From a virus, in the IMG/VR virus record IMGVR_UViG_3300036715_001865, positions 1 through 64,000 of that record: 64,000 nucleotides of DNA. One strand, given 5' to 3'. The position numbers were made by a program, and so were the translations under genes. This document shows, in pieces, positions 30,657 to 52,772 of the stretch. The notes beneath the pieces were generated by a model that worked only from the letters and a program-made list of their open reading frames with translations, was not told the DNA's origin and ran no database searches. Each line of letters starts with the position of its first letter. Within the stretch, counting starts at the first letter, position 1.

Positions 30657-32213
30657 TTATACAACAGAGCTATTGTTGATAGTATATTTTCGTTTCCCAC
30701 AATCCCATATACGCAATATTCCGTTATTATTACAGTTAACGGTTTCAGATAATGTTGGGTCAAAGTGTTTCAATAACTTTTGTAAGTTTTTGCGTCTATA
30801 GTTAAATTTATGAAACCTATTATAACCATCCGGACTATAATAATAGTCTGGTGGTAAAATACTATCTAATACAAATCCAGTTTTTTCATATAACTGTCCA
30901 TTACTCCACCGGTTATCAGCAAAACTAATAATTTGTGTCCAATTGTGTGATTGTTTAAAGTGTGTTAATATTTTTGAAAACCCTCCCACCACAGTACAAG
31001 ATGTAGCATACCTATTCAAACAAAAAATATTATTTGGTTGTTTAATAAAGGCCATAGCAGCTACTAATGTGCCACCACACTCCAACCCATATGTTATGCT
31101 TCCAGGGCCATCCCCTTGGATATGATGCTCCTCAAAAAATTGTTTTTTTTGATGCTTATCTAATTGGACAACAGTTGTTTTCCGGGCAAACAATTTATGG
31201 ATATGTGCGAAACCCAGTAAATGCATCAATTTGTTGACAACTTGACGTTTTCGCTGTTTCCACTCGTCTTCATAAATAGTTAATAATTGAATACCTTGTT
31301 GTTGACACATATCATGCTTGTGTTTATGATAATGTCTATCTTTTCCTTTTTGTTCACTGTGCCAATATAACCCACAATATTCAATTGCTAAGTTAAACTG
31401 TGGAATATAGATATCCAATTCTAATGGTGATATGATAGTTCTGGTATTAACAACATGCTCAATGTCACAATCTATTAACAGTTGGGACAGTTGCTTGTGC
31501 CCTCCTGACATTCCATAATATTTTGTTTCAATACCATACTTTCTCATATAATTACAAACTGTGGGAACTCCTCCAGTCAACTTCAACTCTTCAGCTATCA
31601 GAGTCAACGATTTCTTATTAGTTAAATGTTGGTCCGTTAGCCAATCAATATTCTGTAATTTTGTTAATGATATTGGATCAATCCATCTATGGGATATATT
31701 TTGAACACCATATTTCAACTGCCAAGTACTAATTCTTTTATTGGTTCGTTGAGTGATATCATTTTGAGTGTACGGATGTAGTAATCTATATTGTTGGGTG
31801 GAGTGTTTTCCTTGGGCGGAAGCTAGGTAATTAGTATGTCCAAATTTATTCAGGTTGGTAATTTTTCTTGCCTGTGTTCCTTTTTTTGTTGCAGCAATCA
31901 ACATCTGAGGGGACTGTTTCCACAACATCCCTGACTGTACCTTAATAGGATCTTTTGATGCACACTGGACACAACAATATTTATTATATTGTTTTTTATC
32001 AGTCTTCCATTTTACCAGAATTGAACAAGATGGGGCAGAACAAATTGGTAAATTATCACCATGTATTATATGCCATAACCTTTGTTGCAATGAACTGTTT
32101 GTTGGTAAAAAATTAGTCTGTTCGATAACCTGTTGCTTAATATGAGCATTGGTTTTTTTTAGATTTAATTCATTCCCATGTTGTTGCCATATTATTGCCT
32201 CTTCCTTTGTCAC
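30657..32213 (-). CDS. Free-standing endonuclease E2: KYG repeats + HTH + Vsr-like nuclease + GNAT/Mom-like domain
   Basis: LELDIYIPQFNLAIEYCGLYWH nuclease motif; HHIQG...LNRYAT...GGFSK...IISFADNRWSNGQLYEKTGF; RIWDCG end. Confidence 0.85.
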   Translation of the reverse strand: MTKEEAIIWQQHGNELNLKKTNAHIKQQVIEQTNFLPTNSSLQQRLWHIIHGDNLPICSAPSCSILVKWKTDKKQYNKYCCVQCASKDPIKVQSGMLWKQSPQMLIAATKKGTQARKITNLNKFGHTNYLASAQGKHSTQQYRLLHPYTQNDITQRTNKRISTWQLKYGVQNISHRWIDPISLTKLQNIDWLTDQHLTNKKSLTLIAEELKLTGGVPTVCNYMRKYGIETKYYGMSGGHKQLSQLLIDCDIEHVVNTRTIISPLELDIYIPQFNLAIEYCGLYWHSEQKGKDRHYHKHKHDMCQQQGIQLLTIYEDEWKQRKRQVVNKLMHLLGFAHIHKLFARKTTVVQLDKHQKKQFFEEHHIQGDGPGSITYGLECGGTLVAAMAFIKQPNNIFCLNRYATSCTVVGGFSKILTHFKQSHNWTQIISFADNRWSNGQLYEKTGFVLDSILPPDYYYSPDGYNRFHKFNYRRKNLQKLLKHFDPTLSETVNCNNNGILRIWDCGKRKYTINNSSVV

Positions 32214-32214
32214 A

Positions 32215-32268
32215 AAAATAACTCCTAATTAAAGGAGTTATTTTAACACAAATACAACATATAATCAA
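32215..32268 (-). promoter_or_regulatory. Promoter TTGATT-17-(TG)TAAAAT overlapping an RBS-sequestering hairpin (E2 leader)
   Basis: -35 at 32263-32268, -10 at 32240-32245; 12-bp stem 32215-32226/32233-32244 with AGGAG in the arm next to the GTG start. Confidence 0.75.
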
Positions 32269-32282
32269 CAGATTATATTTTA

Positions 32283-32424
32283 CCTGCCCCCAAGCTCTAT
32301 TTGCCACATCTGGATTAAAATCCTGTAATGTTTGTATCACTGTGGGTGATATACCTAAATGGTCTAATATCCAATTTGCTCCTTGGTCCACGCTATCTCC
32401 AATAGATGAAGGTAATGCCCCACA
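32283..32424 (-). pseudogene. Synonymously diverged 47-codon copy of part of the gp48/54-like gene (30183..30324)
   Basis: Ungapped alignment at offset 2100 with 18 mismatches in 142 nt but only one amino-acid change (T>S); no start or RBS of its own. Confidence 0.9.
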
Positions 32425-33539
32425 AAATCTGATTCCCACATAACAACCAGATTATAACCTAGTGATTTTATTAGGTTTTCTCTTTCGATAGTTTTTTGGT
32501 ATAGCTCGCCCATTGATTTTCCATTCACTTCATTAATTTCATTTGGTGGATAAATTATTGGATTTCCGTGCCAATAATCACCATGAAACTCATAGATTGT
32601 ATTTGTTTCTTCACAGTACCCATCAGCTCTATATCTAGTAGATGGTATTTTCCACTCAGATATTATCTCATAATCTTGTTGAGTTAGCCAGAGTTGGCAC
32701 TTATATGAACTCCAAAAATATTGTCTAATTTCAATTTCGTAATGTCGTAAGTGTGAAAGTATAGTTCCATATGTAATAACATCTAATTCACTGGCAATTT
32801 GAGTAGCAGTTTTGTTTTGTGTAATGTATTGATCAAATAACCAATTATAATCCTCTATTAATGGGAGAATATCCACCATATGTTGTTGACTAGCATGTTT
32901 AACACCATATTTCAATATATTATTATTTGCCCTTTTATTTTTAATTTCTTGTGTTTGTGATGCTCTTATTACCCCATATTTTTTCATATGAGTGGAGGTT
33001 ATAGCATCCTGTACTTGCTTTGTTTGTACTGGAAATACTGTACCATACTTTATCATACAAGTATTATTTCTTTTTTGTCTAACAATAGGGCTTTGTGATG
33101 AATGATGTACACCATATTTCTTTAGATTAGTAGCTACTGTGTTTACTTTCCCACTAGCTGATTGGGCAGCATATTCTACACCATACCTCTCTATCATTGT
33201 TTGTTTTTGTTTTTGTTGTATCAGATCAGAAGACATAGGATTTTTTGTCCCATATCTAATTAAATTGGTAGCAGCTGCTTTGTCTTTTAATTGTGCTGAT
33301 TGCATTGGATTTTCAACACCATACCTCTTTACCATTGTTTGTTTTTGTTTTGCTTGTTGAGATAACTTATCTTGCTTTGCACAACTAGCACTACAATATG
33401 TATTAAATTGTCCCCCAGTAGCCACATTTCTCCATTTTACCTCAGTAGGACACATTTTACACAACACAGGATATGTCTTATGGTGTTTATCTAACCAACC
33501 TTGTTGAATATCAGATATCTTTTTCATAGTCCCAACCAA
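32364..33539 (-). CDS. Free-standing endonuclease E1: many KYGV repeats + HTH + Vsr-like nuclease, no GNAT domain
   Basis: RADGYCEETNTIYEFHGDYWHGNP...GYNLVVMWESDF; the C-terminus runs out of frame into the gp48/54 fragment. Confidence 0.8.
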   Translation of the reverse strand: MVGTMKKISDIQQGWLDKHHKTYPVLCKMCPTEVKWRNVATGGQFNTYCSASCAKQDKLSQQAKQKQTMVKRYGVENPMQSAQLKDKAAATNLIRYGTKNPMSSDLIQQKQKQTMIERYGVEYAAQSASGKVNTVATNLKKYGVHHSSQSPIVRQKRNNTCMIKYGTVFPVQTKQVQDAITSTHMKKYGVIRASQTQEIKNKRANNNILKYGVKHASQQHMVDILPLIEDYNWLFDQYITQNKTATQIASELDVITYGTILSHLRHYEIEIRQYFWSSYKCQLWLTQQDYEIISEWKIPSTRYRADGYCEETNTIYEFHGDYWHGNPIIYPPNEINEVNGKSMGELYQKTIERENLIKSLGYNLVVMWESDFVGHYLHLLEIAWTKEQIGY

Positions 33540-33562
33540 CTGCTAATTTGTGTACCCTAGAC

Positions 33563-33618
33563 ATAATAAACTCCTATTGAAAGGAGTTTATTATAAACCA
33601 CATAAGTAAAATAATCAA
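33563..33618 (-). promoter_or_regulatory. Promoter TTGATT-17-TATAAT overlapping an RBS-sequestering hairpin (E1 leader)
   Basis: -35 at 33613-33618, -10 at 33590-33595; 13-bp stem 33563-33575/33582-33594. Confidence 0.75.
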
Positions 33619-33622
33619 CTGA

Positions 33623-34210
33623 TTAAATTTTACCTGCACCCCCTGTAGCAATCCCCGGACCCTGTGAATATCCTCCAAGTACTTGTCTTGCATGGTCAAA
33701 ACTGATTACAACAGCTAGTTCAACTGGATCACCTGTTTCATATGCCAACTCTGCATAATCAATACTTTCAATCCAACAACCTTCAATTGTCCATTTTTCA
33801 ATCACTTGATCATTACCATCTAACATATCTAAGTAACTAACAAACTTATATAATGAACCTTCCCCAGCAGCCGCGAGCCATTGACCTTCAGCCCCAATTA
33901 ACCACTGTTGTTTTTGTTCCTGTGCTTGTAATACTCGAGATGCAGTTCCAGTAACATCATCTTGAATCGTAAGGTTCATTGGTTCCCACGAATGTTTACC
34001 AGCAATATATGAAATTGAGTTATAACGATGCAATGTTATTTTCTCATGTTTTAATTGTGGTCTACTAACCTTTGTTGTTTGCATAGATATTGGCTGACTA
34101 TCTGTTCCACCACCCATGTTCGCAAAGGTGATTCTCCATCTATTTTTGTGTTTTGGGTGTAGGATACCTGTTCCAACACCTGGAATCCCTATATCATTAA
34201 TTGTTGACAT
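33623..34210 (-). CDS. gp19: Tail tube protein
   Basis: LHPK.KNRWRI.F...RP.L...Y.AGK..WEP..LTI.DD...W.IEGCW...ISFD; late promoter at 34238-34245. Confidence 0.85.
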   Translation of the reverse strand: MSTINDIGIPGVGTGILHPKHKNRWRITFANMGGGTDSQPISMQTTKVSRPQLKHEKITLHRYNSISYIAGKHSWEPMNLTIQDDVTGTASRVLQAQEQKQQWLIGAEGQWLAAAGEGSLYKFVSYLDMLDGNDQVIEKWTIEGCWIESIDYAELAYETGDPVELAVVISFDHARQVLGGYSQGPGIATGGAGKI

Positions 34211-34271
34211 GAATTATATCTCCTAATTTGTTTATTATATTTATACAAACGAGGGTATTATAATACAAAAA

Positions 34272-35738
34272 TCACATTAACACATATTTAATCTTGCCAC
34301 AGTCCCATATCCGCAAAACTCCATTTAAGTCACAATTAACTTTTTCACTCAACTGCTCGTCATATTTTTTTAATAATTTTGATAGGTACTTTCGACGATA
34401 GTTAAATTTGTGTACCCGATTGTGTCCATCTGGGGAATAATAATAATCAGGAGGTAGAGTACTTACAGAAATAAACCCAGTGGCTTGGTATAACTCTCCT
34501 GAACTCCACCTCAAATCCGCAAATGTTACGATCTGGGACGGAGCATAATTGGTTTTGAAATATGATAATAACTTAGTAAACCCACCTACAATCAATGAAG
34601 ATGTGGCATATCTATTTAACACAAATGCTCCACCCTGTTGTTGTATAAACGACATACAAGATACCAACTCATTGTCATATGTTAGTCCTATATTAATGGA
34701 ACTAGGACCGTCCCCTTGTATGTGGTGGGCAGTAAGAAAGGATTGCTTAACATCTGGAGATACTGTTTGGATAATACACTTTCTGCCATATAACCGAGGT
34801 CGATTATCACAGTTTAATAAAATATTTAATTTTTCTTTTATTATAGGTTGTTTTTGTTTCCACTCATCTTCGTATATTGTCAACAATCTAATACCCAACT
34901 GTTCACACATTTTGTGTTTGGTGCTGTGATAATGTTTATGTTTACCTTGTTGTTCACTGTGCCAATACAACCCACAATACTCAATTGCTAAATTATACTC
35001 TGGTATGAATATATCAAGCTCATATGGAGGTATGATAGTACGAACATTGACATCAAACGAAATAGACAATCCACGTAAATAATCACCTATTTGTTTTTCG
35101 CCAGTAGATACGAAAAAATGCTTTGTATCATATCCTAGTTTATGCAAGTTTCGTTGAACTGTATTAACATCAACTTCTAGCTCTGTAGCGATATCACTCA
35201 ATGTTCTTTTATTGACATGGTGTTGTTCTTGTAACCACGTAGGGTCTATTAATTTGGAATAACTGGTAGGTATTATGTGTTTTTGATTTTTGTGTATTCT
35301 ACCATACCGTTGGATATTTGTGCTTTGTTGTTTATTTTTAACTTCAACAGTTTGTTGTGGAATAGTAGTACCATACCGTTGGACATTTGTATTATTGCGC
35401 TTGATGATCCGATTAGGATTATCAATCCCACATTTATACGAACAGGTATCAGAATACCCAACATTTTTTCCTGTTGTATTAAACTTAACTAGACTATGAC
35501 ACACTACACACAGTTTTGGGGAGATTATATGGTTTTTAATACAATGAACCCTCTCCCTAAGAGACGATTTTAAATCATCTGTTATGAAGTCGGTGCGGGT
35601 CATTATATATGAAGTTGCAACAGGGTTTAATTTCAACACCCCAAATGATTTTTTTGATAATTTATAATCACTATCTAGTATACCACAATCTACTAGGTGG
35701 GTCAGAATTTCACTATCAGTTTTAAATTCATCAGACAC
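34272..35738 (-). CDS. Free-standing endonuclease E4: KYG repeats + HTH + Vsr-like + GNAT/Mom-like
   Basis: ELDIFIPEYNLAIEYCGLYWH; IVTFADLRWSSGELYQATGF; RIWDCG. Confidence 0.85.
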   Translation of the reverse strand: MSDEFKTDSEILTHLVDCGILDSDYKLSKKSFGVLKLNPVATSYIMTRTDFITDDLKSSLRERVHCIKNHIISPKLCVVCHSLVKFNTTGKNVGYSDTCSYKCGIDNPNRIIKRNNTNVQRYGTTIPQQTVEVKNKQQSTNIQRYGRIHKNQKHIIPTSYSKLIDPTWLQEQHHVNKRTLSDIATELEVDVNTVQRNLHKLGYDTKHFFVSTGEKQIGDYLRGLSISFDVNVRTIIPPYELDIFIPEYNLAIEYCGLYWHSEQQGKHKHYHSTKHKMCEQLGIRLLTIYEDEWKQKQPIIKEKLNILLNCDNRPRLYGRKCIIQTVSPDVKQSFLTAHHIQGDGPSSINIGLTYDNELVSCMSFIQQQGGAFVLNRYATSSLIVGGFTKLLSYFKTNYAPSQIVTFADLRWSSGELYQATGFISVSTLPPDYYYSPDGHNRVHKFNYRRKYLSKLLKKYDEQLSEKVNCDLNGVLRIWDCGKIKYVLM

Positions 35739-35799
35739 AAAAAACTCCTATTTTTATTAATATTATATAGGAGTTTTTTGTTTTTTACAACATTACTTA
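35725..35799. repeat. 75-bp direct repeat, copy 1 (E4 leader); copy 2 at 37318..37392
   Basis: 74/75 identical. Contains TTGTAA-17-TATAAT (35785-90 / 35762-67), a 13-bp stem hairpin (35739-51 / 35767-79) and codons for MSDE. Confidence 0.95.
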
Positions 35800-37331
35800 G
35801 TCAATACCCATCTCTGTAGACCACAATTATATATTTGGTGTATGTTGTTATTGTGGGTATTGGTTACTTCACTTAGGTTGGGGTCATAAGTTTTTAATAG
35901 ATTAGGTAAGTTCTTGTGTCTATAATTAAATTTATGAACCCGACACTCGCCTATAACATATTGGTAATCAGGAGGAGTAATTTTATCTAACACAAACCCA
36001 TTTGTACCATATATTGTTCCAACACTCCATCTCAGATCAGCAAAACTTATAATAGTAGCCCACTCATTATTATTTTTAAAATGCGACAATAATTTACTAA
36101 ACCCACCTCGCACCTGTCCAATGGTAGCATACCTATTCAATACAAAGTTGCCTTCACCTTTATTAATAAAGGTCATCATCGCTACAAAATTGCCACCATA
36201 GGTAAGTCCATATGTTGTGGACCCTGGACCATCTCCTTGTATATGATAGGAATCAAAAAATTCTGATTTTGTTTTCTTGTTTGGTACTGTGATTACACAC
36301 GACCGCCCATTAATTTTTACACCTTCACTATATCCAAGTATAGTTCTGATGGTATTTTTAACCAGGTGTGAATTATTCAACCACTCATCCGAGAATATAG
36401 TGATTAATCTAATTCCAATATCTGCACACCTATTATATTTCATTTGGTGATAATTGGATGTTTTGTATTCAGAGGAGTGCCAATATAATCCACAATATTC
36501 TATGGCTATGTTTTTATCAGGGATGTAAATATCTAGTTCATATGGTTTAATTAATGACCTATTTTTAACTTCAAAAATTACACCAATTTCTGTTAGAAAC
36601 CGTTCAATATCAACTTGTTGCTGTGAAGATGATTGGTGCCAATACTGTACTTCTATTCCATGTTTTATTAATCTACTAGAGACTACTTTATGGGAGTTTT
36701 TCCAATGTAATCCCAATTCAACACACATAGATGCAACTGTCCGTTGATTAGTTATGTGTTGTTCATACAACCAATCAACGCTATTGAGTTTATTAATGGC
36801 TTCCTCAGATAAAACAGATAATAGCTTGACTGTGCTGGACGGTATCCACCCATTATCAATCTTTCGTCCTATGGTTATTTTTCTAATTTGTTTACTATGT
36901 TCACTATATTGTCTATGTTGAGACAGTGCAGTTAATTGAATTTTTTGACGAGTATCAGTTGATGTTGTGTTGCCGTTGTTCCAATGGGTAATTTGTCCAG
37001 TTGAGAATCGTTCTTTTCTGGTATTGGACAATTGAATGTTTTGTTCAACTGTTCTTGGGATGCCTTTGTTCCAAGCTTGGGTAGGATTATCTAATTTTGT
37101 TTGTTTTATCTTTTCAACCACCTCTAATGATCTTGGTACTCCTTTTCTACTTGAATTTGATCTAATGGCTGCTTCTCGTTTTCTATTGGTTGCATTTGTG
37201 GACTTTAAAACAGCAGTGGGATACAACAGTTTATACTCTGGTAACGTGGTGCTATGTTTTGAAAGATGTTTCCATGTAATGGTAGACATTTCTGCACCAC
37301 ATATCAAACATTTAATTAATTCATCAGACAC
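35793..37331 (-). CDS. Free-standing endonuclease E3: C2H2-like finger + NUMOD3-like motifs + HTH + Vsr-like + GNAT/Mom-like
   Basis: CLICG...WKHLSKH; WNKGIPRT; ELDIYIPDKNIAIEYCGLYWH; IISFADLRWSVGTIYGTNGF. Confidence 0.85.
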   Translation of the reverse strand: MSDELIKCLICGAEMSTITWKHLSKHSTTLPEYKLLYPTAVLKSTNATNRKREAAIRSNSSRKGVPRSLEVVEKIKQTKLDNPTQAWNKGIPRTVEQNIQLSNTRKERFSTGQITHWNNGNTTSTDTRQKIQLTALSQHRQYSEHSKQIRKITIGRKIDNGWIPSSTVKLLSVLSEEAINKLNSVDWLYEQHITNQRTVASMCVELGLHWKNSHKVVSSRLIKHGIEVQYWHQSSSQQQVDIERFLTEIGVIFEVKNRSLIKPYELDIYIPDKNIAIEYCGLYWHSSEYKTSNYHQMKYNRCADIGIRLITIFSDEWLNNSHLVKNTIRTILGYSEGVKINGRSCVITVPNKKTKSEFFDSYHIQGDGPGSTTYGLTYGGNFVAMMTFINKGEGNFVLNRYATIGQVRGGFSKLLSHFKNNNEWATIISFADLRWSVGTIYGTNGFVLDKITPPDYQYVIGECRVHKFNYRHKNLPNLLKTYDPNLSEVTNTHNNNIHQIYNCGLQRWVLTK

Positions 37332-37392
37332 AAAAAACTCCTATTTTTATTAATATTATATAGGAGTTTTTTGTTTTTTACAACACTACTTA
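37318..37392. repeat. 75-bp direct repeat, copy 2 (E3 leader, after the sheath stop)
   Basis: Partner of 35725..35799 with the same promoter, hairpin and U-tract. Confidence 0.95.
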
Positions 37393-37394
37393 AG

Positions 37395-39128
37395 TTATGC
37401 TGTCAAGGACGCACCGGTTGCAACAATTCGGATTGGAATATATATAAATTCCGCGGCCCTTACAGGTTTCAATGCGACATCGAGATACATTTCATTTCTA
37501 TCAATGCGATCAGGTGTATTATTAGAGGAATCACAGACTGTAGCGAAATCATATAGACCACGTTTAACAATCAAATCACCCAAAAATGAATCAACAGCAG
37601 CTTTTAGGTTATCTCTGGTTAGTTGATCATTTGGTTCAAACACAAACGGCATTGTGTTTTTGCGTAATGAACGTTTGATATATTGAACCAAACGTACCAC
37701 ATTGATACGATCCATTGCTGAAGCATCCGGAGCAGAAGTTTTTTGTCCCCATACAATAATACCTCTTCCTGGGAAGAACACAATAGGATTAATATTGGTA
37801 AAGTATTTGTATAAGTTATCTCTTTGTCCTAAATTCAAAGCAACTGGGTTGAATGTAGTTGGTGTTCCTAGAGTACCAGATACATATCCAACTTCAGATA
37901 TACTTGATACTTGTCCACGTCTAGTTCCAGCTGGTGCAAACCACATTTCTGACACTTCATCACTGTATATGATTGTGCGTAATGCAGTACCAGATGCTGA
38001 AACGAATACATTTGCTCCATCTAAATTTGATGCTAATCCGTGTGGATAATAATATGCCACATTTCGGTTAGATCTTCGTTCAACAGTAGCAGCCCAAGTT
38101 ACAACATCTTCTGGAGTTTTGGTAAATGGAGTATCAGCAATAACAAATGCTTCTTCTTGTATATCAATTACCAAATTGATTAATTCATCCACAACTTCAG
38201 GGAAACCAGGACATACAACAATGTTATATTCGTATGCTTCTGATCTTATATCAGTGTTGCTGTTAATAGATGCTTGTAAGGCTGTAACAACAGCAACTCT
38301 ACGTGCAGCATCATTTGAACCAAGGCTAGTTTCGTTGGCAAATTGATTAGTATACTTAAATTCATCAGCACCACCCAATAAAGCGTTACCAGCTTCTTGT
38401 GGAGTCCATTCAGTAGTTACAATTCCACCTAAGTTATTGTTAACCCAGTCAGTTGCAATTCCAGCTAATCCAAGAAATACACCAGTTGCAGCATTAGTAC
38501 AACCATTAGCATACACTAAATATGGAGAGGACGCATGGTCATCCATGAAACTAATACGACTGTGTGCAAATGAGAACATGCTCCAAATAGGTTGTGTTGC
38601 TGCTGCTGCAAGTGATAAGAATTTGGTACGATTGATAGTGGTTTTGTAAGTTGGGTCTGATGGAACATATCCATTTGATAAATTAAATTCATTCAAATAT
38701 GCATTTGCTAAATTTTCCAGAACATACGAAGCTTCTTGGATTTTAGTATCCCACATCATTTGAATATCAGCAACATTATCGTTCAAGTTTACATTTGCAC
38801 GAATAACATATGCTCTGCTACAAATACCTAAACACTGATTCAATGCAAACAAACCGTATTCATTTCGGGTATCCCCATGTAGTGGTCTACCACTAGTATC
38901 TGTTAAGAATTTAGGAATACCATACAATTCAGTACTTTGTCTTAAACTGGTAAGAGTTCGGATCACATTAGATTCATATGTGCCTGCCGCCCCAGATATA
39001 CCATCTGGTTTAGTTTTTTCATCAGCTGTTGCTATGAAAATTAATGGGACAGTTTTAGCTGATGCTGGAATGAAAAAGGATTCATCTGTCACAGTAACTG
39101 ATACCCCTGGGCTAATTAAATTTGCCAT
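37395..39128 (-). CDS. gp18: Tail sheath protein
   Basis: LISPGVSVTVTDES; WFAPAG.RRG; INPI.FFPGRG..VWGQKT...SAMDRINV.RL; FVFEPND; NNTPDRIDRNE..LDVALKP.RAAEFI. Confidence 0.95.
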   Translation of the reverse strand: MANLISPGVSVTVTDESFFIPASAKTVPLIFIATADEKTKPDGISGAAGTYESNVIRTLTSLRQSTELYGIPKFLTDTSGRPLHGDTRNEYGLFALNQCLGICSRAYVIRANVNLNDNVADIQMMWDTKIQEASYVLENLANAYLNEFNLSNGYVPSDPTYKTTINRTKFLSLAAAATQPIWSMFSFAHSRISFMDDHASSPYLVYANGCTNAATGVFLGLAGIATDWVNNNLGGIVTTEWTPQEAGNALLGGADEFKYTNQFANETSLGSNDAARRVAVVTALQASINSNTDIRSEAYEYNIVVCPGFPEVVDELINLVIDIQEEAFVIADTPFTKTPEDVVTWAATVERRSNRNVAYYYPHGLASNLDGANVFVSASGTALRTIIYSDEVSEMWFAPAGTRRGQVSSISEVGYVSGTLGTPTTFNPVALNLGQRDNLYKYFTNINPIVFFPGRGIIVWGQKTSAPDASAMDRINVVRLVQYIKRSLRKNTMPFVFEPNDQLTRDNLKAAVDSFLGDLIVKRGLYDFATVCDSSNNTPDRIDRNEMYLDVALKPVRAAEFIYIPIRIVATGASLTA

Positions 39129-39239
39129 GTTGTTTCTCCTTGGGAAAATTATATTAATTATATTTCACACATTTCATCCCGCAGATAATGCAAGAACTTT
39201 ATTGTGTTACATATATATTTATCAAAAAGTACTTTTTTG

Positions 39240-39268
39240 TTGGCTTTTGATCTAATAGCATATATAAT
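39240..39268 (+). promoter_or_regulatory. Sigma70-type promoter TTGGCT-17-TATAAT for E5
   Basis: -35 at 39240-39245, -10 at 39263-39268; no RBS hairpin seen. Confidence 0.55.
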
Positions 39269-39319
39269 AAGAGTAATCAGTAATCATAACTTCAACCAGA
39301 TAAGGAATCATCAGTAATC

Positions 39320-40927
39320 ATGAATGAGCTTGAAACAGAATTGCACAAATTAAACATATTCACCCACAATGGAACTATTAATAAACAAGCGTCCAGATTA
39401 TTAACCAACAATCCTGAGACATTATATAAATTAATAGAAGCAACAAAATTTCTAGAAAACCACCCCTCTAATCGAGCCAGATTACATGCTTTGAGAACGG
39501 GACTATTATCACAACCCAAGTGTGCAACATGCTCAACAGCCACTACATTTAATAATGCGACTGGACAGTTTAATAAATTTTGTCCAAATACTGGTGGGAA
39601 ATCTTGTACAAACAGTAACACAGACTCCATTCTTAAAAAAAATACCACTATGGTTAAAAAGTATGGAGTTACCAATGCTGCACACAGTGAGGAGTTACAA
39701 ACCAAACGGAACAATACTATGGTGGCTAGGTATGGCTGTACAACACCTATACAAAATGCTGACATTAAACAAAAAATAAAAGATACCATGATGGCTAGAT
39801 ATGGAACGATGCATATTGCTCATATTCCACAATCTGCCACGAAACGAAAGGAAACTAACATCCGCAAATTTGGAGCTGCTACATATGCTCAATCATTGGT
39901 GCCCACTGAAGCTATAGACCTATTATCAAACATAGATTGGTTGTCAGACAATTTAAAAGATTTTACGGTGGCAGAAGTTGCGATAGCAGCAAACACGTCT
40001 GTATTTACGGTTAGAAAATGGATTTATCATCACAATCTACAACACTTGTTGGTATCAACTGGCTCATCTGATCAACGAGAGTTGGCAAGATTCCTAGATA
40101 CACTGGATTTAGAATATACAACCAATGATAAGCAACTAATTGCTCCAAAGGAAGTGGATTTTTATATACCATCCAAGCAATTAGCTGTGGAATATAATGG
40201 AATTTTTTACCACTCACAGTTATCAAAACGAGATAAAAATTACCACATAAACAAAACAACTAGTTGCAACAATAATGGGGTTAGATTAATTCAAATATGG
40301 TCAAATGAATGGAAAAACAAGAAAGACATTGTACAATCCAGAATATTACATGCTGTCGGAATGTCTACTCGAATATATGCTCGGAAGTGTAATATAATTG
40401 TATTACCAACAGCAAACGAACAACAATTTTTTGACGATAACCACATACAGGGAGCAGTACGATCAACTATTTGTTTTGGATTGGAATTGGATGGTAAAGT
40501 GGTAGCATGTATGAGTTTTATAAAATCCAGATTTTCCCCAACTCATGAATGGGAACTATTAAGATATAGTGGCATTAAAAACCATACAATATTAGGTGGC
40601 GCAAGCAAATTGTTTAAACATTTTGTAAAAACACATAATCCAACATCTATAGTGTCCTACTGCGACCTACGTTGGGGAACTGGGACATTATATTCCCAAT
40701 TAGGTTTTACATATTCACACACAAGTGCACCTAATTATTTTTATTTTGTCAGAAATGGGGATACTAATAAGTTATTCACAAGGGTCAATTTCCAAAAGCA
40801 CAAACTAGCTAATAAACTAACCACATTTACCCCAGAACATACAGAATGGGAAAACATGGTTAATAATGGTTATGATAGAATTTGGGATTGTGGGAACAAG
40901 GTATTTACTTGGAATAATGGCGGATAG
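39320..40927 (+). CDS. Free-standing endonuclease E5 (antisense to the late operon): KYG repeats + HTH + Vsr-like + GNAT/Mom-like
   Basis: EVDFYIPSKQLAVEYNGIFYH; WELLRY...GGASKL...IVSYCDLRWGTGTLYSQLGF; RIWDCG. Confidence 0.85.
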   Translation: MNELETELHKLNIFTHNGTINKQASRLLTNNPETLYKLIEATKFLENHPSNRARLHALRTGLLSQPKCATCSTATTFNNATGQFNKFCPNTGGKSCTNSNTDSILKKNTTMVKKYGVTNAAHSEELQTKRNNTMVARYGCTTPIQNADIKQKIKDTMMARYGTMHIAHIPQSATKRKETNIRKFGAATYAQSLVPTEAIDLLSNIDWLSDNLKDFTVAEVAIAANTSVFTVRKWIYHHNLQHLLVSTGSSDQRELARFLDTLDLEYTTNDKQLIAPKEVDFYIPSKQLAVEYNGIFYHSQLSKRDKNYHINKTTSCNNNGVRLIQIWSNEWKNKKDIVQSRILHAVGMSTRIYARKCNIIVLPTANEQQFFDDNHIQGAVRSTICFGLELDGKVVACMSFIKSRFSPTHEWELLRYSGIKNHTILGGASKLFKHFVKTHNPTSIVSYCDLRWGTGTLYSQLGFTYSHTSAPNYFYFVRNGDTNKLFTRVNFQKHKLANKLTTFTPEHTEWENMVNNGYDRIWDCGNKVFTWNNGG

Positions 40928-40930
40928 CCA

Positions 40931-41698: not shown

Positions 41699-41741
41699 GT
41701 AATATTATCCTTTTTATTGAACTTGTATTTATAACCTAAAT

Positions 41742-43289: not shown

Positions 43290-43290
43290 A

Positions 43291-43602
43291 TTAATCTCCA
43301 GATTCCATTTTCTTTAGTTTTATATAATATTTAGGATCTTCAGTTAAGTGATCTTTTGCAATTAATTTTGCAATTAATTTTGATTTAGTATGTTCGAGTT
43401 CAACACTAATACCTAATTTTAATTGGGTAGTGTCAAATTCAGAATCTGGAACAAAATCGTGGTTTCCGATATTAGATATAATATCTTCAACTGAATCCTC
43501 TCCAATTTCATCGAGTTCTTTGCTAGTTACATTTAGCAACTTAGCTAGTTGTTGAATTTTATCGTTTTCAACGATAAAATGTTTGAATGTTTGATGTAAC
43601 AC
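43291..43602 (-). CDS. Small protein of the QL.LGI.VELEHT...IA.DHL.EDP.YY.KL family, with CTS-like N-terminus
   Basis: Conserved phage motif; begins ...TFKHFIVE. Confidence 0.7.
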   Translation of the reverse strand: MLHQTFKHFIVENDKIQQLAKLLNVTSKELDEIGEDSVEDIISNIGNHDFVPDSEFDTTQLKLGISVELEHTKSKLIAKLIAKDHLTEDPKYYIKLKKMESGD

Positions 43603-43604
43603 AA

Positions 43605-43641
43605 AAATACCCCCAAAGAGTTGTCTTTGGGGGTATTTATA
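43605..43641 (-). terminator. Terminator hairpin overlapping a late promoter
   Basis: 15-bp stem 43605-43619/43624-43638; TATAAATA at 43634-43641. Confidence 0.75.
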
Positions 43642-43661
43642 ATCTACCTTACTTATACTAC

Positions 43662-46139
43662 TTATGGATTTACATTAGTATCATCTTGTAAATATTTCCA
43701 AACAGTGCCATTGAAGTACGTATACGCAAGAGTTTTTGGTAAAACTGCTGGAGTGGTTGGAACATGTGGTTTAGTACCAACATACAACACTTTAAAATGT
43801 GTGAATATAGGTGTACCACTTGGAGTTTTTTGTAAATGTGCAGCATCAATCAAATCTACAATACCTGAAACTGGTGCTGTAAATCCACGAGCATGAACAG
43901 CTTTAAATAAAGTACCATCTAATACCACCACCTTTGATGCTAATCCAGTAGTTGCTGATGTGATTTTAATATTACCACCAGTTATAGTTGCAGTAGCAGC
44001 AGCCCCCAAGTCAGTATTAATTTCAGATAACAATGTGGTAAATGTTTGTGCTGCACTTCCTTGAATACTAATTGGTTTAGATACTCCATCCACGATAACA
44101 TTAGCTGTATATAATGTTGGAGCTGTACTAGCTGTATAACTAATTCCAACATACCCTGTTAAACTACTAAACAATGCACCTACATCATGTATTAATACAG
44201 ATGAAGCTAAACCAGTAGTAGCAGATGTGATAACAATATCCCCCCCTGTTAGTGCAGCAGTTGCATATGTTACAGCTGCTTTTCCAGGTACTGCATGAGA
44301 TATTGATACCAACCCTGACACAGCTTTAAATAAAGTTACATCAGCAATAGATACCAACGACAATGCGCCTGTTGTTGCAGACGTGATTCGTAGATGACCA
44401 GCATTGATCGATGCCACAGCTGCTGCTCCCAAATCAGTATTAATTTCTGCTAACAAAGTTGTAACAGTTTGTGCTGCACTTCCCAACACTGAAATAGATT
44501 TGGCAACTCCGTCAACTGTAATAGTTGCAGTATATGTTGTAGTTCCAACTAAGCCTGTTGCAGCAGATCCAGACAAAAAGTTAATGTACTGTACATCTTG
44601 ATACCCAGCTGTTGCTGTAGAATTTAAATCAGTGTTGATTTCATCAATAACATGTTGGATAGTATCCCCCATAGCTCCAGTGAAGTTAATAGTTCTAATA
44701 TTACCATCAACATACACCGTTGAAGAATATGTACGCGATGAACTACCACCTGGATTTGTTGGTAACAAAAATGCGAAACTTGGTAAAGCAGCAAATAATG
44801 TACCATCAGTTATTACAACTGTTGAGTGTACTCCATATGTTGCAGATGTGATTCTAATATCTCCACCTGAAATAGAAGCAACCGCTGCTGCGCCTAAATC
44901 TGTATTAATTTCATTGATAACATCACCAAATGTTGCAATGGCTGCTGGCAAGATAGAAATTGATTTGGACACCCCATCAACTACTACTGTGGCTGTTAGT
45001 GCTGCCAACGAACCAGTACCAGCTACAGCAGTTGCAATAGTACTAAAACTTGTTAAAGCAGGGAATAATGTTCCAGCTGTAATTGCCACAGAAGAAGTGG
45101 TGCTTGTTGTTGCTGAAGTGATTTTGATGTTACCACCCGAAATAGAAGCAACCGCTGCTGCACCTAAATCTGTATTAATTTCAGCTAACAATGTGGTAAA
45201 TGTTAAGGCTGCTGAACCCAATATAGAAATTGCTTTTGACACACCATCAACTACTACTGTGGCAGTATAGGTAGGATATACAATATCTGTTCCACCCGCT
45301 GATACATTTCCGTTTGTGGAAGTCCATGCAGTATTAATTGCACCAATTAAGTCGGTTCCACTTCCAGCTGGGACAGTAACTACTACAGATGATGTTGCCC
45401 CAGTAGTGGACGAAGTGATAATCCATGCATTACCGATTGCAGCAACTGTTGCACCAGGAATTTGAGCATCTAACAGAACTGCCATAGAGGTCATGGTATC
45501 AATTCCAGTAGCAGATACGGTATATACCGTAGCAGTACCACCATCAACAGCAACCTTAATAGTATAACTAGCAGCGGCAATACCAAGAACAGTTGTTGGA
45601 GTAATTGCTGGGGTATCAGTAAACGCAATCGTTGCACTACCACTGGTTGCTGGAGTAAATAATCCAGTTGCATCACCACCAGCTTTTGCTACAGAAAAAT
45701 TAGCAAATTGATAACCAGCTGTAGGTACCAATGTTGTAGATGTCCCTGCAACAATTGGATTATTATAATTAACAATCTGGTATCCTTTGGTTCCAGCTGA
45801 TGCTGATAACCCTGATGGGTCTGTTGTTAATTTTGCGGCACCCAAATCAACTGTTGCTTTTCCAGCAGTTGCTGTAGCAACATTGCTGAGTCCTGTCGTT
45901 GACCCACCTGATTTAGATCCACCAAAATCGATAATTTGGCTACCTGCTGTTGGACCAGCTAACGGTAAAGCACCGCCATTATTTGTGATAAATTGTGTTA
46001 GAATACTTTTATCATCTTCTGATAACGTATCCCATAAAATAAGAGATCTGACACCGGCATCGGTTTTAAGAACGGCAGCATTATTCAATGTTCCGTTGAA
46101 ATGTACATTTTCGGATGTAATCCACACTGGGTTTGGCAT
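43662..46139 (-). CDS. Large Ala/Thr/Gly-rich structural protein with ~6 repeated ~75-aa beta/alpha modules
   Basis: Recurrent YTATV.VDGVSK.ISI.G....T...L..EINTDLGAAA.A.I.GG.I.ITSAT.G; own late promoter and terminator. Confidence 0.75.
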   Translation of the reverse strand: MPNPVWITSENVHFNGTLNNAAVLKTDAGVRSLILWDTLSEDDKSILTQFITNNGGALPLAGPTAGSQIIDFGGSKSGGSTTGLSNVATATAGKATVDLGAAKLTTDPSGLSASAGTKGYQIVNYNNPIVAGTSTTLVPTAGYQFANFSVAKAGGDATGLFTPATSGSATIAFTDTPAITPTTVLGIAAASYTIKVAVDGGTATVYTVSATGIDTMTSMAVLLDAQIPGATVAAIGNAWIITSSTTGATSSVVVTVPAGSGTDLIGAINTAWTSTNGNVSAGGTDIVYPTYTATVVVDGVSKAISILGSAALTFTTLLAEINTDLGAAAVASISGGNIKITSATTSTTSSVAITAGTLFPALTSFSTIATAVAGTGSLAALTATVVVDGVSKSISILPAAIATFGDVINEINTDLGAAAVASISGGDIRITSATYGVHSTVVITDGTLFAALPSFAFLLPTNPGGSSSRTYSSTVYVDGNIRTINFTGAMGDTIQHVIDEINTDLNSTATAGYQDVQYINFLSGSAATGLVGTTTYTATITVDGVAKSISVLGSAAQTVTTLLAEINTDLGAAAVASINAGHLRITSATTGALSLVSIADVTLFKAVSGLVSISHAVPGKAAVTYATAALTGGDIVITSATTGLASSVLIHDVGALFSSLTGYVGISYTASTAPTLYTANVIVDGVSKPISIQGSAAQTFTTLLSEINTDLGAAATATITGGNIKITSATTGLASKVVVLDGTLFKAVHARGFTAPVSGIVDLIDAAHLQKTPSGTPIFTHFKVLYVGTKPHVPTTPAVLPKTLAYTYFNGTVWKYLQDDTNVNP

Positions 46140-46262
46140 TTGTTGCTCCTTTGTAAGGCTTGTTTAATGTATACAATATATTTATACGTTATGCTATATT
46201 TTAGAAAGATATACCACCTCAGATTGACCAATAGATCAACAAGAGGTGGATTTATTGGGACA

Positions 46263-49214: not shown

Positions 49215-49227
49215 GTTAGGTATATAG

Positions 49228-49569
49228 TTATTTATACCCGACCGTATGAACTATTGTAGAATGTGATTCGATGAATTTATTAAATTTTTTCGCGGGGATA
49301 GAAATTGGAAAAAGGGTTGTCTCATCAACCTGAGACAACCCTTTGAATGATACTGATACAGGGGTTGGTGCGTATTTATCGGTACAATCCCACTCAACAA
49401 CTAACATATTTTTTGGTTTTAATTTAAACGTATGTTCACCTTCATTAATTTTTAAGGCACAATAATCGCTTATTTTATATTCAACTGTTGATATTGGGGT
49501 ATTATCAATTGCTGATATCAATTGTTCTCTACTTTCTAGTAAAAATTGTTTAAATGTAAGTTTTGACAT
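49228..49569 (-). CDS. Hypothetical protein with CTS-like N-terminus
   Basis: MSKLTFKQFLLE. Confidence 0.7.
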   Translation of the reverse strand: MSKLTFKQFLLESREQLISAIDNTPISTVEYKISDYCALKINEGEHTFKLKPKNMLVVEWDCTDKYAPTPVSVSFKGLSQVDETTLFPISIPAKKFNKFIESHSTIVHTVGYK

Positions 49570-49610
49570 AATTATAGATGTGCTGGTTATATCTTATTTA
49601 GTACAGCACC

Positions 49611-50483
49611 CTATTTTGTGTTCCAGGGGATTGGTATGTTGTTACTTTGTAACAACTGTTCATATTCTAGTTTGGTCCACTTATTAGCTTGTTGAATTAT
49701 TGGCTCAGCTTCTGGCCATCTACCTTGAATAACATCTCTAGCATACCACACAGCAGCCTGTGGGTCGGTAATAATCCTAGCCTCTAACTGTTTATATCTT
49801 GTGAATGGTCTAGTTTTGGCTTTTCTGTATGCTTCCATTGGAGACATTTCTTGATGCCCGACAGTACTAACATGCGAATTTCTAATGGTTGCAATATGAT
49901 TAATTACTGAAGTGGAGAAAAATACAGCCATACTAGGTTCGTTCGGATTGACTATACCTTGCCCATTATCTATTACCCCTTCAATACCTACAGCACGTAA
50001 GTCTTTACGCAACTTAATAGAAATTTCAGAATTACTCATACCTTTATTTTTAAATTTTGGATACTGACCCAACCACACCGATTTAGCATCTTGCTTTGTT
50101 AATCGCTTGCTAATAGCTCCAACACTAGCTAATTTCTGTTTAATTTCTGGTGTTTGGCTACTGTTTGATAGAACCCATATGTTAGATCTGGTTGGAATAC
50201 TAAACACTTGAATGAATGGGGAACCACCTGCCCAAGGAATTTGGTCATGTTGATGAGATCTTATCACAAAATCAATTGGATATGAATAAATTCCTAAGGG
50301 AGTTTGAAATGAACTCCCTGGATTTATTCCTAATTTATTAATTTGGGTGAATGATACAAACAGGTTAGTAGGATCATCTGATTGGTCTCTTATATCAATT
50401 AATTGATCTGTTACTGATGTTCTAGTATTTTGATCTGGATTTTTTCTTGCTTCAATTAAAAATTCAATAAATGTGGGTTTCAT
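49611..50483 (-). CDS. Hypothetical protein with CTS-like N-terminus
   Basis: MKPTFIEFLIE; late promoter at 50511-50518. Confidence 0.75.
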   Translation of the reverse strand: MKPTFIEFLIEARKNPDQNTRTSVTDQLIDIRDQSDDPTNLFVSFTQINKLGINPGSSFQTPLGIYSYPIDFVIRSHQHDQIPWAGGSPFIQVFSIPTRSNIWVLSNSSQTPEIKQKLASVGAISKRLTKQDAKSVWLGQYPKFKNKGMSNSEISIKLRKDLRAVGIEGVIDNGQGIVNPNEPSMAVFFSTSVINHIATIRNSHVSTVGHQEMSPMEAYRKAKTRPFTRYKQLEARIITDPQAAVWYARDVIQGRWPEAEPIIQQANKWTKLEYEQLLQSNNIPIPWNTK

Positions 50484-50536
50484 TTGTGTACCTACCTGTT
50501 GTTGTGTAGGTATTTATACGGCCACCAAATGATTTG

Positions 50537-50989
50537 TTACTTACCAAACCAGATATGCGCAGGCTTCACTGCACATATAACACCCCACCTGTGATCGACA
50601 TAACCCCAATCTTCGACAAACACCCGCCAACCTAATTTATTACTACCATCATGGTCGAGATTTCTATCCCAACCAACACATTCTACTGTGGATGATTCAG
50701 GTGACTGTAACCATTTCCACACCTCTTGTATAGTTTCGTCTGCTGTTAAATCTGTTGGATGTCGGACAAACCCATCCCACGTTTCATCAGCATACCACAA
50801 AGCATCATCTGATACTTCGTCAAATATTTCATCAAAATCCATATTACCCATAATACCAGCCCACCAACTCATACCTCTTGGTGGAAGAGGGATAGGTTTC
50901 CCAGCTCTGGCCATATCAGCCCACTCTCCAACAAACCCTCTAATACAAATCATTTGTTGTATCGGTCCTGTTAATTGTTCTAATTTCAT
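50537..50989 (-). CDS. Hypothetical Trp-rich protein (150 aa)
   Basis: AAGGA RBS; late promoter at 51021-51028. Confidence 0.7.
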   Translation of the reverse strand: MKLEQLTGPIQQMICIRGFVGEWADMARAGKPIPLPPRGMSWWAGIMGNMDFDEIFDEVSDDALWYADETWDGFVRHPTDLTADETIQEVWKWLQSPESSTVECVGWDRNLDHDGSNKLGWRVFVEDWGYVDHRWGVICAVKPAHIWFGK

Positions 50990-51019
50990 AGTATTTCCTT
51001 GTTTCTGTAAGTTATTGAA

Positions 51020-51136
51020 TTATTTATATAACAACCCATACTCCTTAAAAATATCAGGAACAAACTCTTTTAATTTATCTTTGCTCCCAATATTCTCTCT
51101 CCAACCTAACATTTGTAAGTTATCAGGATGAGCACA
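51020..51136 (-). pseudogene. Out-of-frame C-terminal remnant of an HNH endonuclease
   Basis: Reads CAHPDNLQMLGWRENIGSKDKLKEFVPDIFKEYGLLYK*, homologous to CADDSNLQMIGWLENVGSRNHIK inside E6 (~51990-52091). Confidence 0.75.
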
Positions 51137-52772
51137 TACTAAATTTTAATGTTCCACAATCCCACACTCTATAAAAACCATGATTAACCATGTTTTGATA
51201 CTCAGTTAATGTGGCGTCATAATTTGGTAGGGTATTTTTAATAATATCTTTTCTATAGTTCCATCTATGTTTCCGCTGCCCGTTTACCACATAAAAATAT
51301 GCTGGAGGATTAGTTGCTACTAAATTGAACCCCAGTTGGTAATACATATTACCAACGCTCCACCGTATGTCAGCAAAACTATATATTTCTTTCCAACTGT
51401 GATTTCTCTTAAAATGGGTCAATAATTTAGATGCTATCCCCGGAATACGGTAGTCAACATCTGTACAAAATCTACTTAATTCCCATATCCCTTCTTTTGA
51501 TTTTGTTTTATCTTTTTGTCCCAAAGCTACTCTAGGTGAAGTCCATGTCATGACAGATATTAATTTATCGTTATAATATGCTCCGTAACACAACTGAGAA
51601 TTATCATTCCCCTGAACGTGGTTGGCATTCAATAACGATTTTTTTTCTTCAGGTGTACAATATTTAATGACACAATTACGAGCATGTATTTTTTCAGCAC
51701 TTCCTGTAAATGTGTAATGTTTTAATTTTGCGGTCAATAAATCAACATTTTCCATTTCGTCCTCAAACAATACAATAAAAGGTGTAGCAGATTCTTTAAA
51801 TGCTTTATATATAGCCAACCCACTTTTTAAATTCGCATACGATTTGTCCAATGGCAGTACTATAATAGCTCTATTTGAAGCTTCATCATACACTGTCACA
51901 ATAATATCAGCAATTTTTATAAAAGGTTTGCTATTAGGAAATATACCCATCAATGTTTTAGCGTACTGTTCCAATTTTGTATTAGTTGAAATAAACTGAA
52001 AAAACAACGGAGGGATAGTTCCTTTAATATGATTTCGAGAGCCAACATTTTCCAACCATCCAATCATTTGAAGATTAGAATCGTCAGCACACATCTCAGG
52101 TGGGATATTATTATCAAAACAAAACCGTTTAGGTACAATATGGTCTAAATGATACGCTCCATCTACACCTGCTTTCCCTCGTTTTAAATTAAGGGGATTA
52201 ATCTTTTTCTTATGCTTTTTATATACTTGTTCCGTCAAAGCTGTTACAGTAGCCTTATATTGTTGCCATTCTGTAGCAGTTTCTTTCCATTTAGCTGAAT
52301 TTGCCTTTGACCAAGCTGTTAATGGAGCAACTCTTTTCAATGGTCCACACACTCCACATTCTACTTCCATTTCTAATAAATTAGTTGGAGTACAATGAAA
52401 TTCGTGGCCACAATGGATATTTTTAACTAACAATTTAGAGTAAGTGTTTTCGTTTAATAAATGCCTACGACCATCATAATTTGGTGTTAGTATTATTATT
52501 CCTCTTTCTAATAATTTTTTCAAATTTAAATCCCTAGAAATAGAATATTTCTGGTCTCTTTTGTTAGTATTACAGGTAGGACATCCAGATACTCCATATT
52601 TTTTATATGTTTGTCTTTTGGATAAAGGAGTAGCAGTCCATATATGATTACAGGTCATACATTGCATTTTGTGGTGTTTTTTAGTTCCAATAAATGGTTC
52701 TAAAAGTTTAATGTGGTTTTCAGTTTCTAACAATAATGGATAATTATTATTAAATTCTCCTTCTTTTGGCAT
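51123..52772 (-). CDS. Free-standing endonuclease E6: CxxC zinc fingers + HNH + degenerate Vsr-like + GNAT/Mom-like
   Basis: YHLDHIVP...NLQMI...EN HNH motif; the Vsr ExxGxxWH is replaced by IIVLPLDKSY; WELSRF...GIASKL...IYSFADIRWSVGNMYYQLGF. Confidence 0.8.
   Translation of the reverse strand: MPKEGEFNNNYPLLLETENHIKLLEPFIGTKKHHKMQCMTCNHIWTATPLSKRQTYKKYGVSGCPTCNTNKRDQKYSISRDLNLKKLLERGIIILTPNYDGRRHLLNENTYSKLLVKNIHCGHEFHCTPTNLLEMEVECGVCGPLKRVAPLTAWSKANSAKWKETATEWQQYKATVTALTEQVYKKHKKKINPLNLKRGKAGVDGAYHLDHIVPKRFCFDNNIPPEMCADDSNLQMIGWLENVGSRNHIKGTIPPLFFQFISTNTKLEQYAKTLMGIFPNSKPFIKIADIIVTVYDEASNRAIIVLPLDKSYANLKSGLAIYKAFKESATPFIVLFEDEMENVDLLTAKLKHYTFTGSAEKIHARNCVIKYCTPEEKKSLLNANHVQGNDNSQLCYGAYYNDKLISVMTWTSPRVALGQKDKTKSKEGIWELSRFCTDVDYRIPGIASKLLTHFKRNHSWKEIYSFADIRWSVGNMYYQLGFNLVATNPPAYFYVVNGQRKHRWNYRKDIIKNTLPNYDATLTEYQNMVNHGFYRVWDCGTLKFSMCSS

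Follow-up and report, generated by a model that had tools for sequence, protein, structure and literature searches.

Predicted free-standing Hef-type homing endonuclease genes with a Mom-like GNAT domain in an uncultured XacN1-like jumbo phage

Five nuclease genes, named E1 to E5, were analyzed in the first 64 kb (the window) of a 190-kb IMG/VR contig (record IMGVR_UViG_3300036715_001865, rated about 54% complete). Together with a sixth copy farther along the contig, they very probably encode free-standing homing endonucleases of the Hef type that end in a GNAT domain of the Mom clade, a reading to which we assign a probability of roughly 0.85 and which concerns identity and architecture only. 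The five open reading frames (ORFs) described in a first-pass annotation of this DNA, where E5 was called E6, were all found at their coordinates and all intact. The genes themselves are unremarkable representatives of a selfish gene family that is among the commonest in large phages. In addition, the fusion of a Mom domain to a nuclease and the idea that such a protein cuts and protects have both been published before as a prediction (Iyer et al. 2021). The source is an uncultured XacN1-like jumbo phage, with a major capsid protein 61% identical to that of Xanthomonas phage XacN1. Searches of the region against the phage collection with megablast and blastn gave no match, and the phage is known from metagenomes only.

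Architecture and family of the nuclease genes

The six genes, with lengths in amino acids (aa), are laid out as follows.

E1, 30657-32213, minus strand: predicted Hef-type homing endonuclease of 518 aa (PHROG 3339, E 2e-106); Zn-ribbon plus DUF7487-like array, helix-turn-helix (HTH), Vsr-like nuclease (31221-31508), and Mom-like GNAT domain (30660-31220)
E2, 34272-35738, minus strand: predicted Hef-type homing endonuclease of 488 aa (PHROG 3339, E 5e-107); Vsr-like nuclease (34821-35108) and Mom-like domain (34275-34820)
E3, 35793-37331, minus strand: predicted Hef-type homing endonuclease of 512 aa, identified by profile matches and alignments; NUMOD3-like/Ros-MucR-like N terminus, Vsr-like nuclease (36342-36629), and Mom-like domain (35796-36341)
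E4, 39320-40927, plus strand, opposite to its neighbors: predicted Hef-type homing endonuclease of 535 aa (Pfam DUF7487, E 6e-15; PHROG 3339, E 5e-123); DUF7487 array, Vsr-like nuclease (40058-40345), and Mom-like domain (40346-40924)
E5, 51123-52772, minus strand, directly downstream of the major capsid gene: protein of 549 aa (PHROG 559, E 2e-69); two Zn fingers, HNH motif (about 52023-52175), vestigial Vsr-like fold (51717-51980), and Mom-like domain (51126-51716)
Sixth gene, contig positions 76291-77139, minus strand, outside the window: predicted Hef-type gene with a 524-aa open frame, an intact Vsr-like nuclease, and a Mom-like domain

The C-terminal 182 to 197 aa are common to E1 to E5, with pairwise identities of 33 to 55%, and the N-terminal 180 aa are only 14 to 28% identical, each protein opening with a variable DNA-reading array of Zn ribbons and DUF7487- or NUMOD-like repeats. 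A profile of the C-terminal domain (C-domain, about 185 aa) matched each of the five copies with E values of 1e-73 to 1e-91, so the shared domain is not due to chance; the same profile also detected the sixth copy, at 76.3 kb of the contig. Most of the C-domain motifs listed in the first-pass annotation proved to be invariant or nearly so across E1 to E5, namely H.QG, L.R(Y/F), G(G/I)(F/A)(S/T)KL, and (S/T)(F/Y)(A/C)D.RW..G..Y...GF. The last motif on that list was less constant, as it read WDCG in E1, E2, E4, and E5 but YNCG in E3.

Upstream of this domain, the common HTH (WL..QH..IA.EL) and the Vsr-like nuclease described earlier for E1 to E4 were both seen, with intact catalytic positions. 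The nuclease segment of E4 matched I-Bth0305I (3R3P) with an E value of 7.7e-5. The catalytic residues D, E, H, H, K, and E, conserved in 63 to 64 of 64 full-length homologues, are all present in E1 to E4, which places these four among the Hef-type/EDxHD nucleases; E5 falls outside, with its EY.G..WH strand deleted. Hef-type enzymes had already been placed in the Vsr-like "EDxHD" family by Taylor et al. (2011). I-Bth0305I has a homologous nuclease domain and shares the catalytic D/E/H/D pattern with E1 to E4. Unlike E1 to E5, it is intron encoded, ends with the nuclease, and has no GNAT domain. Throughout the contig, all five of the Hef-type Vsr nucleases are fused to a Mom-like domain.

E5 deserves separate treatment. 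Its Vsr site has indeed decayed, as the first-pass annotation held, through loss of the EY.G..WH strand, yet the protein is probably not a nuclease-dead relic, since it carries an HNH motif that had been missed. Residues 265 to 352, approximately, still model as a Vsr-like fold (match to 3R3P with a probability of 0.96, a TM score of 0.63, a root mean square deviation of 3.0, and an E value of only 0.2). Upstream of this remnant lies the motif HLDHIVP...NLQ...EN, in which D210, H211, N233, and N242 are invariant in 41 of 41 aligned sequences (E5 and 40 homologues with 38 to 71% identity). PHROG 559 is annotated "HNH endonuclease"; E5 had no HNH match in Pfam and no HNH fold in Foldseek. As judged from this motif and its conservation, a putative HNH module stands in place of the decayed Vsr site. 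Compared with I-Bth0305I, E5 lacks the His-bearing strand and has the putative HNH module instead.

Over the greater part of each protein, E1 to E5 matched both PHROG 3339 ("homing endonuclease") and PHROG 559 ("HNH endonuclease"), with E values of 1e-53 to 1e-123. A tblastn search found matches in 420 phage records, many of them annotated "Hef-like homing endonuclease"; the annotated relatives include genes of Campylobacter phages CP8 and PC5 (10 to 12 copies each), Bacillus phage AR9, and Dickeya and Acinetobacter phages. Two Acinetobacter phages label the gene "putative nuclease/acetyltransferase protein." The C-domain profile matched 19,581 cluster representatives at 50% identity, and among the full-length matches listed, the domain forms the C terminus of proteins that are mostly 450 to 650 aa long. 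A homologue with 36% identity lies between nrdA and nrdB of the T4-like Escherichia phage LH2.

This last position is the one known for the family prototype. Hef has been in the literature since 2005 and its Vsr-like nuclease since 2011; according to published work, hef replaces mobE between nrdA and nrdB in the T4-related phage U5 and, from there, Hef cuts nrdB. Hef of U5 and the Hef-like enzymes of other phages (F-LimIII, F-LimVII, F-LimVIII, and F-LimX of Dickeya phage LIMEstone1 and those of Campylobacter, Acinetobacter, and AR9 phages) have the same full-length architecture as E1 to E5, including the C-domain, and all are free-standing genes between conserved phage genes. The differences lie in the N-terminal arrays, which presumably direct E1 to E5 to targets other than that of Hef, and in the neighbors, which are tail tube, sheath, and capsid genes here rather than nrdB. 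The fusions of Mom domains to restriction endonuclease-fold nucleases that Iyer et al. (2021; Viruses 13:63, PMC7824862, section 3.4.7) reported from jumbo phages are the same type of gene, from the same kind of phage. Literature searches found no paper joining Hef, Vsr, or homing with Mom or GNAT, and Iyer et al. (2021) use none of the words Vsr, Hef, and homing.

The Mom-like C-terminal domain

The assignment of the C-domain to the GNAT/Mom group, proposed in the first-pass annotation, was borne out by a structural comparison, in which the domain modeled as a GNAT fold and, among solved structures, most specifically resembled Mom of phage Mu. An AlphaFold2 model of the E1 domain, built from an 81-sequence alignment, had a predicted local distance difference test (pLDDT) score of 95.2. 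Its best match in the PDB by Foldseek was Mu Mom (8BV8; E 5.7e-7), with ordinary GNATs next. At the sequence level, PHROG 1384 ("Mom-like DNA modification protein") matched E5 at 3.9e-8 and E2 at 1.5e-4. A family-versus-family hhalign comparison with the Mom alignment gave an E value of 1.1e-4 for the window family; for the E5 family, the probability was 92% and the E value 5e-7 over 138 columns. Only this local mode worked, as hhalign against Mom as a single sequence or in global mode gave no usable alignment. A single-sequence search of the PDB with the C-domain likewise found no match, and a profile search found weak GNAT matches only.

Mom is a Gly-tRNA-dependent GNAT that modifies adenine at N6; among its residues, R111, S124, D149, and R151 are indispensable and H58 and Y159 important, and an HTH-like helical insertion between beta6 and beta7 is also essential (PMC13219725, 2026). 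The C-domain is only about 13 to 15% identical to Mom, and most of these positions can be paired (E1 numbering). H58 corresponds to H33 of H(I/V)QG, R111 to R70 of L(N/S)R(Y/F), D149 and R151 to D102 and R104 of SFAD.RW, and Y159 to Y111, with F174, G179, and H183 falling on the Y, G, and H of PDY.Y..G.R.HK. The counterparts of these eight Mom residues (H58, R111, D149, R151, Y159, F174, G179, and H183) are identical in all five window copies. Across 81 homologues, H33, R70, D102, G108, and Y111 were conserved in 81 of 81 and R104 in 76, the range for all of the paired positions being 76 to 81. Like Mom, the C-domain has a GNAT fold, and it may share the helical insertion that Mom has ahead of its final strand: the model shows three helices between strands 126-129 and 169-172, and Mom aligns structurally through its residue 226. 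By sequence, only the start of the insertion (F174, G179, and H183) aligns with Mom. The C-domain is basic (isoelectric point, 9.1 to 9.5), and its conservation among the paralogues matches that of the nuclease. Moreover, the earlier remark that the domain outlives the decay of the Vsr site holds, as E5 keeps it though its Vsr site is gone.

A substrate other than DNA, such as a protein, an aminoacyl-tRNA (as for the TacT/AtaT toxins), or a small molecule, is quite improbable for the GNAT domain. GNAT substrates are not readable from the fold (PMC13219725), which leaves room for this explanation, but the sequence-level kinship is specifically with Mom and the domain is always fused to DNA-targeting modules.

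Several observations weigh against a working Mom-type enzyme. None of the five window proteins scored above the gathering threshold of the Pfam Mom family (PF25680), although matches to it were found in 7 of the 81 homologues and in many E5-type homologues (for example, 27.4 bits against a cutoff of 27.1). The essential S124 of Mom has no confident counterpart, as the alignments put a gap or a non-Ser residue opposite; a Ser or Thr (73 of 81) does occur in GGFSK, at the N terminus of the helix corresponding to alpha3 of Mom. Neither Y59 nor W48, the latter a dimer residue of Mom, is kept in the C-domain. Where Mom has PRNSES, the beta4-alpha3 loop of the C-domain carries an invariant GG, closer to CoA-binding GNATs than to Mom, so the chemistry of Mom may not carry over. 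The neighboring 391-aa nuclease has the same array and no Mom-like domain. Finally, the LH2 homologue of Hef (L005:3216-4784), which can be aligned through both the Vsr and the Mom-like domains, reads SYGNRRW in place of SFAD.RW, with Asn as the counterpart of D149 and the invariant Gly lost; its Mom-like site may be inactive, suggesting that an intact site of this kind is dispensable for homing. The window copies, in contrast to this T4-like copy, keep the D149 counterpart.

Such observations bring in the possibility, doubtful but substantial, that the Mom-like domain is no longer a transferase and serves as a DNA-binding, base-flipping, or dimerizing module whose conserved residues grip DNA. 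The basic character of the domain fits this explanation, as does the modeling that puts R111, R151, and the inserted helices of Mom at the DNA/tRNA cleft (PMC13219725). The T4-like homologue points the same way: although the D149 counterpart and the invariant Gly are missing from it, activity in homing is reported for Hef of U5. In addition, a Vsr-type nuclease, with its single active site, requires a partner to make a double-strand break. However, the H/R/D/R/Y/H counterparts are kept across the 81 sequences, at 38 to 71% identity, which is beyond the usual need of a binding surface. I-Bth0305I dimerizes via its nuclease domain without such a module, and the 391-aa neighbor works with the same array and no such domain.

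On balance, we lean toward the Mom-like domain being functional, either as a working enzyme or as a base-flipping binder of nucleic acid. It appears likely to be working because the Mom-type residues are kept, because it is basic and as conserved as the nuclease, and because it survives the apparent change of nuclease in E5. The first-pass annotation had further read some of its motifs as acyl-CoA motifs. This reading is outdated, since Mom itself uses Gly-tRNA(Gly) rather than acyl-CoA (PMC13219725), and the donor for the C-domain may be either aminoacyl-tRNA or acyl-CoA. The acyl-CoA donor assumed by Iyer et al. (2021) has likewise been superseded for Mom by the 2026 work.

Mom is a stand-alone late gene under Com control, whereas the C-domain is always fused to a nuclease. 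An independent stand-alone form of the domain is not claimed here. Two short hits, P0006 and P0019, are pieces of split or frameshifted homing endonuclease genes (HEGs), each with a DNA-binding ORF just upstream; a third, P0016, lies 120 nt from a contig end, and Atlas clusters of about 190 aa may be fragments. In other metagenomic phages, a split or frameshift divides the Hef-type genes L017:2189-3831 and L019:1997-3438 into two ORFs, one for DNA binding and the other for the nuclease and the Mom domain.

Insertion sites, mobility, and expression signals

Further features of the window are listed below, all on the minus strand.

32364-33539: related free-standing nuclease gene of 391 aa, with a PHROG 3339 match confined to its N-terminal part
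32283-32424: fossil copy of codons 74 to 121 of the 473-aa tail-tube-like gene, bracketing E1 together with the live copy (30183-30324)
32215-32244: hairpin upstream of E1, with the AGGAG Shine-Dalgarno sequence in its 3' arm, then a U-run and GUG
35737-35781: putative Shine-Dalgarno-sequestering hairpin upstream of E2 (z score, -5.2)
37330-37374: putative Shine-Dalgarno-sequestering hairpin upstream of E3, directly after the sheath stop codon (z score, -4.6)

Four IMG/VR relatives, with sheath proteins 70% identical to that of the window, have the same gene order of adaptor, 515-aa gene, sheath stabilizer, sheath, tube, and 473-aa gene. In these relatives, gaps of just 25 to 64 nt occur at the positions of E4 and of E3 plus E2, and a short, unrelated 135-aa ORF takes the position of the 391-aa gene and E1. 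The Mom-like domain was absent from all four relatives across 97 to 183 kb. Similarly, XacN1 has a small unrelated ORF and no HEG after its capsid gene, where E5 sits. Because the relatives keep the gene order without these genes or the domain, E1 to E5 are best explained as mobile insertions into the intergenic gaps of the tail and head gene cluster. Intron-borne genes were considered and rejected, as no Rfam match to an intron RNA was found in the window.

A trace of the insertion of E1 may remain in the fossil and live copies, which form a 142-nt direct repeat with 87% identity. Its 18 mismatches fall almost entirely on third codon positions and change 2 amino acids. The duplication resembles a seam between two diverged alleles, which would date from the recombination event that introduced the HEG. 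That the fossil repeat is a recoded immunity patch was rejected, since the 18 nearly all synonymous differences are evenly spread, as for diverged alleles.

The 391-aa protein has the Zn-ribbon, DUF7487 repeats, and HTH of the Hef-type genes; its nuclease differs (YEFHGDYWHG ... MWESDF), and it is without the Mom-like domain. The combination of a common array with another nuclease indicates that the DNA-reading array has been shuffled between nuclease types.

Other changes were noticed in the same neighborhood. An 825-aa ORF with no PHROG match and a 103-aa ORF lie at 43291-46139 (minus strand), between a 983-aa adaptor-like gene and the 515-aa virion gene. These two flanking genes are adjacent in the relative L008, so the segment appears to be another lineage-specific insertion. 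The tail sheath of the window (37395-39128, minus strand) has 577 aa, compared with 658 aa in the 70%-identical relatives (L008:6001-7977); residues 158 to 243 of the relatives' sheath have no counterpart in it, a surface domain having been lost or gained. The Hef-type gene of L017 again lies just after sheath and tube genes, which suggests a recurrent landing site.

With respect to expression, E1, E2, and E3 start with GUG. The RNA of positions 32204 to 32282, which holds two hairpins ahead of E1, folded at -23.8 kcal/mol (z score, -6.2). E2 and E3 have in common a 75-nt leader (35725-35799 and 37318-37392) that is 99% identical and spans the first codons, the Shine-Dalgarno sequence, and a stable hairpin with a U-run and a TATAAT-like loop. 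No comparable leader hairpin was found for E4, and in E5 a hairpin covers the AUG. From these features, it appears that GUG starts and hairpins hiding the Shine-Dalgarno sequence would keep the expression of E1 to E3 low.

The insertion pattern bears on the proposal of Iyer et al. (2021), in which momylation protects phage DNA and the nuclease attacks host or superinfecting DNA (PMC7824862). This is the same cut-and-protect idea as the one considered here, framed as restriction-like defense and without a Hef or homing connection. On this reading, the genes would not be homing elements but single-chain weapons resembling restriction-modification systems, with the Mom domain marking the whole genome and the nuclease degrading host or superinfecting DNA. 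The explanation has the standing of a published prediction, and Mom does protect Mu DNA genome-wide. Against it, each copy bears its own long and different DNA-reading array, and a generic mark would not call for as many as six fused copies. Furthermore, the genes are presence/absence insertions between conserved genes, absent from close relatives, and the family prototype Hef is a homing enzyme according to the literature. We therefore consider this explanation unlikely and retain the Hef-type homing endonuclease reading.

A possible role for the Mom-like domain and its significance

A mechanism can be proposed for E1 to E5 from the behavior of the family, in which Hef of phage U5 cleaves nrdB and homes. 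During mixed infection, each enzyme would cut the HEG-less allele of a neighboring conserved gene, and recombinational repair would then copy the HEG together with its flanks. Expression would be throttled by the GUG starts and the hairpins that hide the Shine-Dalgarno sequence.

What the Mom-like domain may contribute is more tentative. The role proposed in print, which we consider possible at odds clearly short of even, is that the domain transfers an acyl or aminoacyl group to a base and shields the carrier genome from its own nuclease. The domain lies on the same chain as the DNA-reading array and is therefore read as acting at the site that this array reads. Since each copy has its own array and its own domain, and the HEG-free relatives have none, such action would probably be directed by the array to its own site rather than being genome-wide. 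That such a protective role is necessary is argued against by the altered site of the LH2 homologue, by the 391-aa neighbor with the same array and no such domain, and by the donor, which the use of Gly-tRNA by Mom leaves ambiguous. A more specific version, slightly less likely again, is a single-chain, site-specific "mark-or-cut" element, in which the Mom-clade domain would be an active transferase steered by the array of the nuclease, so that each enzyme would place an acyl or aminoacyl mark on a base within the long site that it recognizes.

It is assumed that a homing endonuclease leaves its own genome uncut because the sequence at the target differs. If the mark-or-cut proposal were true, homing immunity would be chemical rather than sequence based. 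No other class of Mom-type DNA modifiers in nature would then be as abundant; the C-domain profile gave 19,581 clusters (50% identity), compared with 843 Mom-like clusters (90% identity) recovered in a separate search that is not directly comparable.

To the known family, the contig adds modestly: six paralogues with the Mom-type residues intact, the apparent replacement of a Vsr site by a putative HNH module with retention of the domain, and relatives with clean empty sites. These HEG-free relatives define the empty sites, and the use of Gly-tRNA by Mom, reported in 2026, offers a concrete assay for the Mom-like domain. If the base-modifying domain is active, Hef-type endonucleases would have a second, chemical route to immunity and would represent a natural programmable enzyme that writes or cuts.

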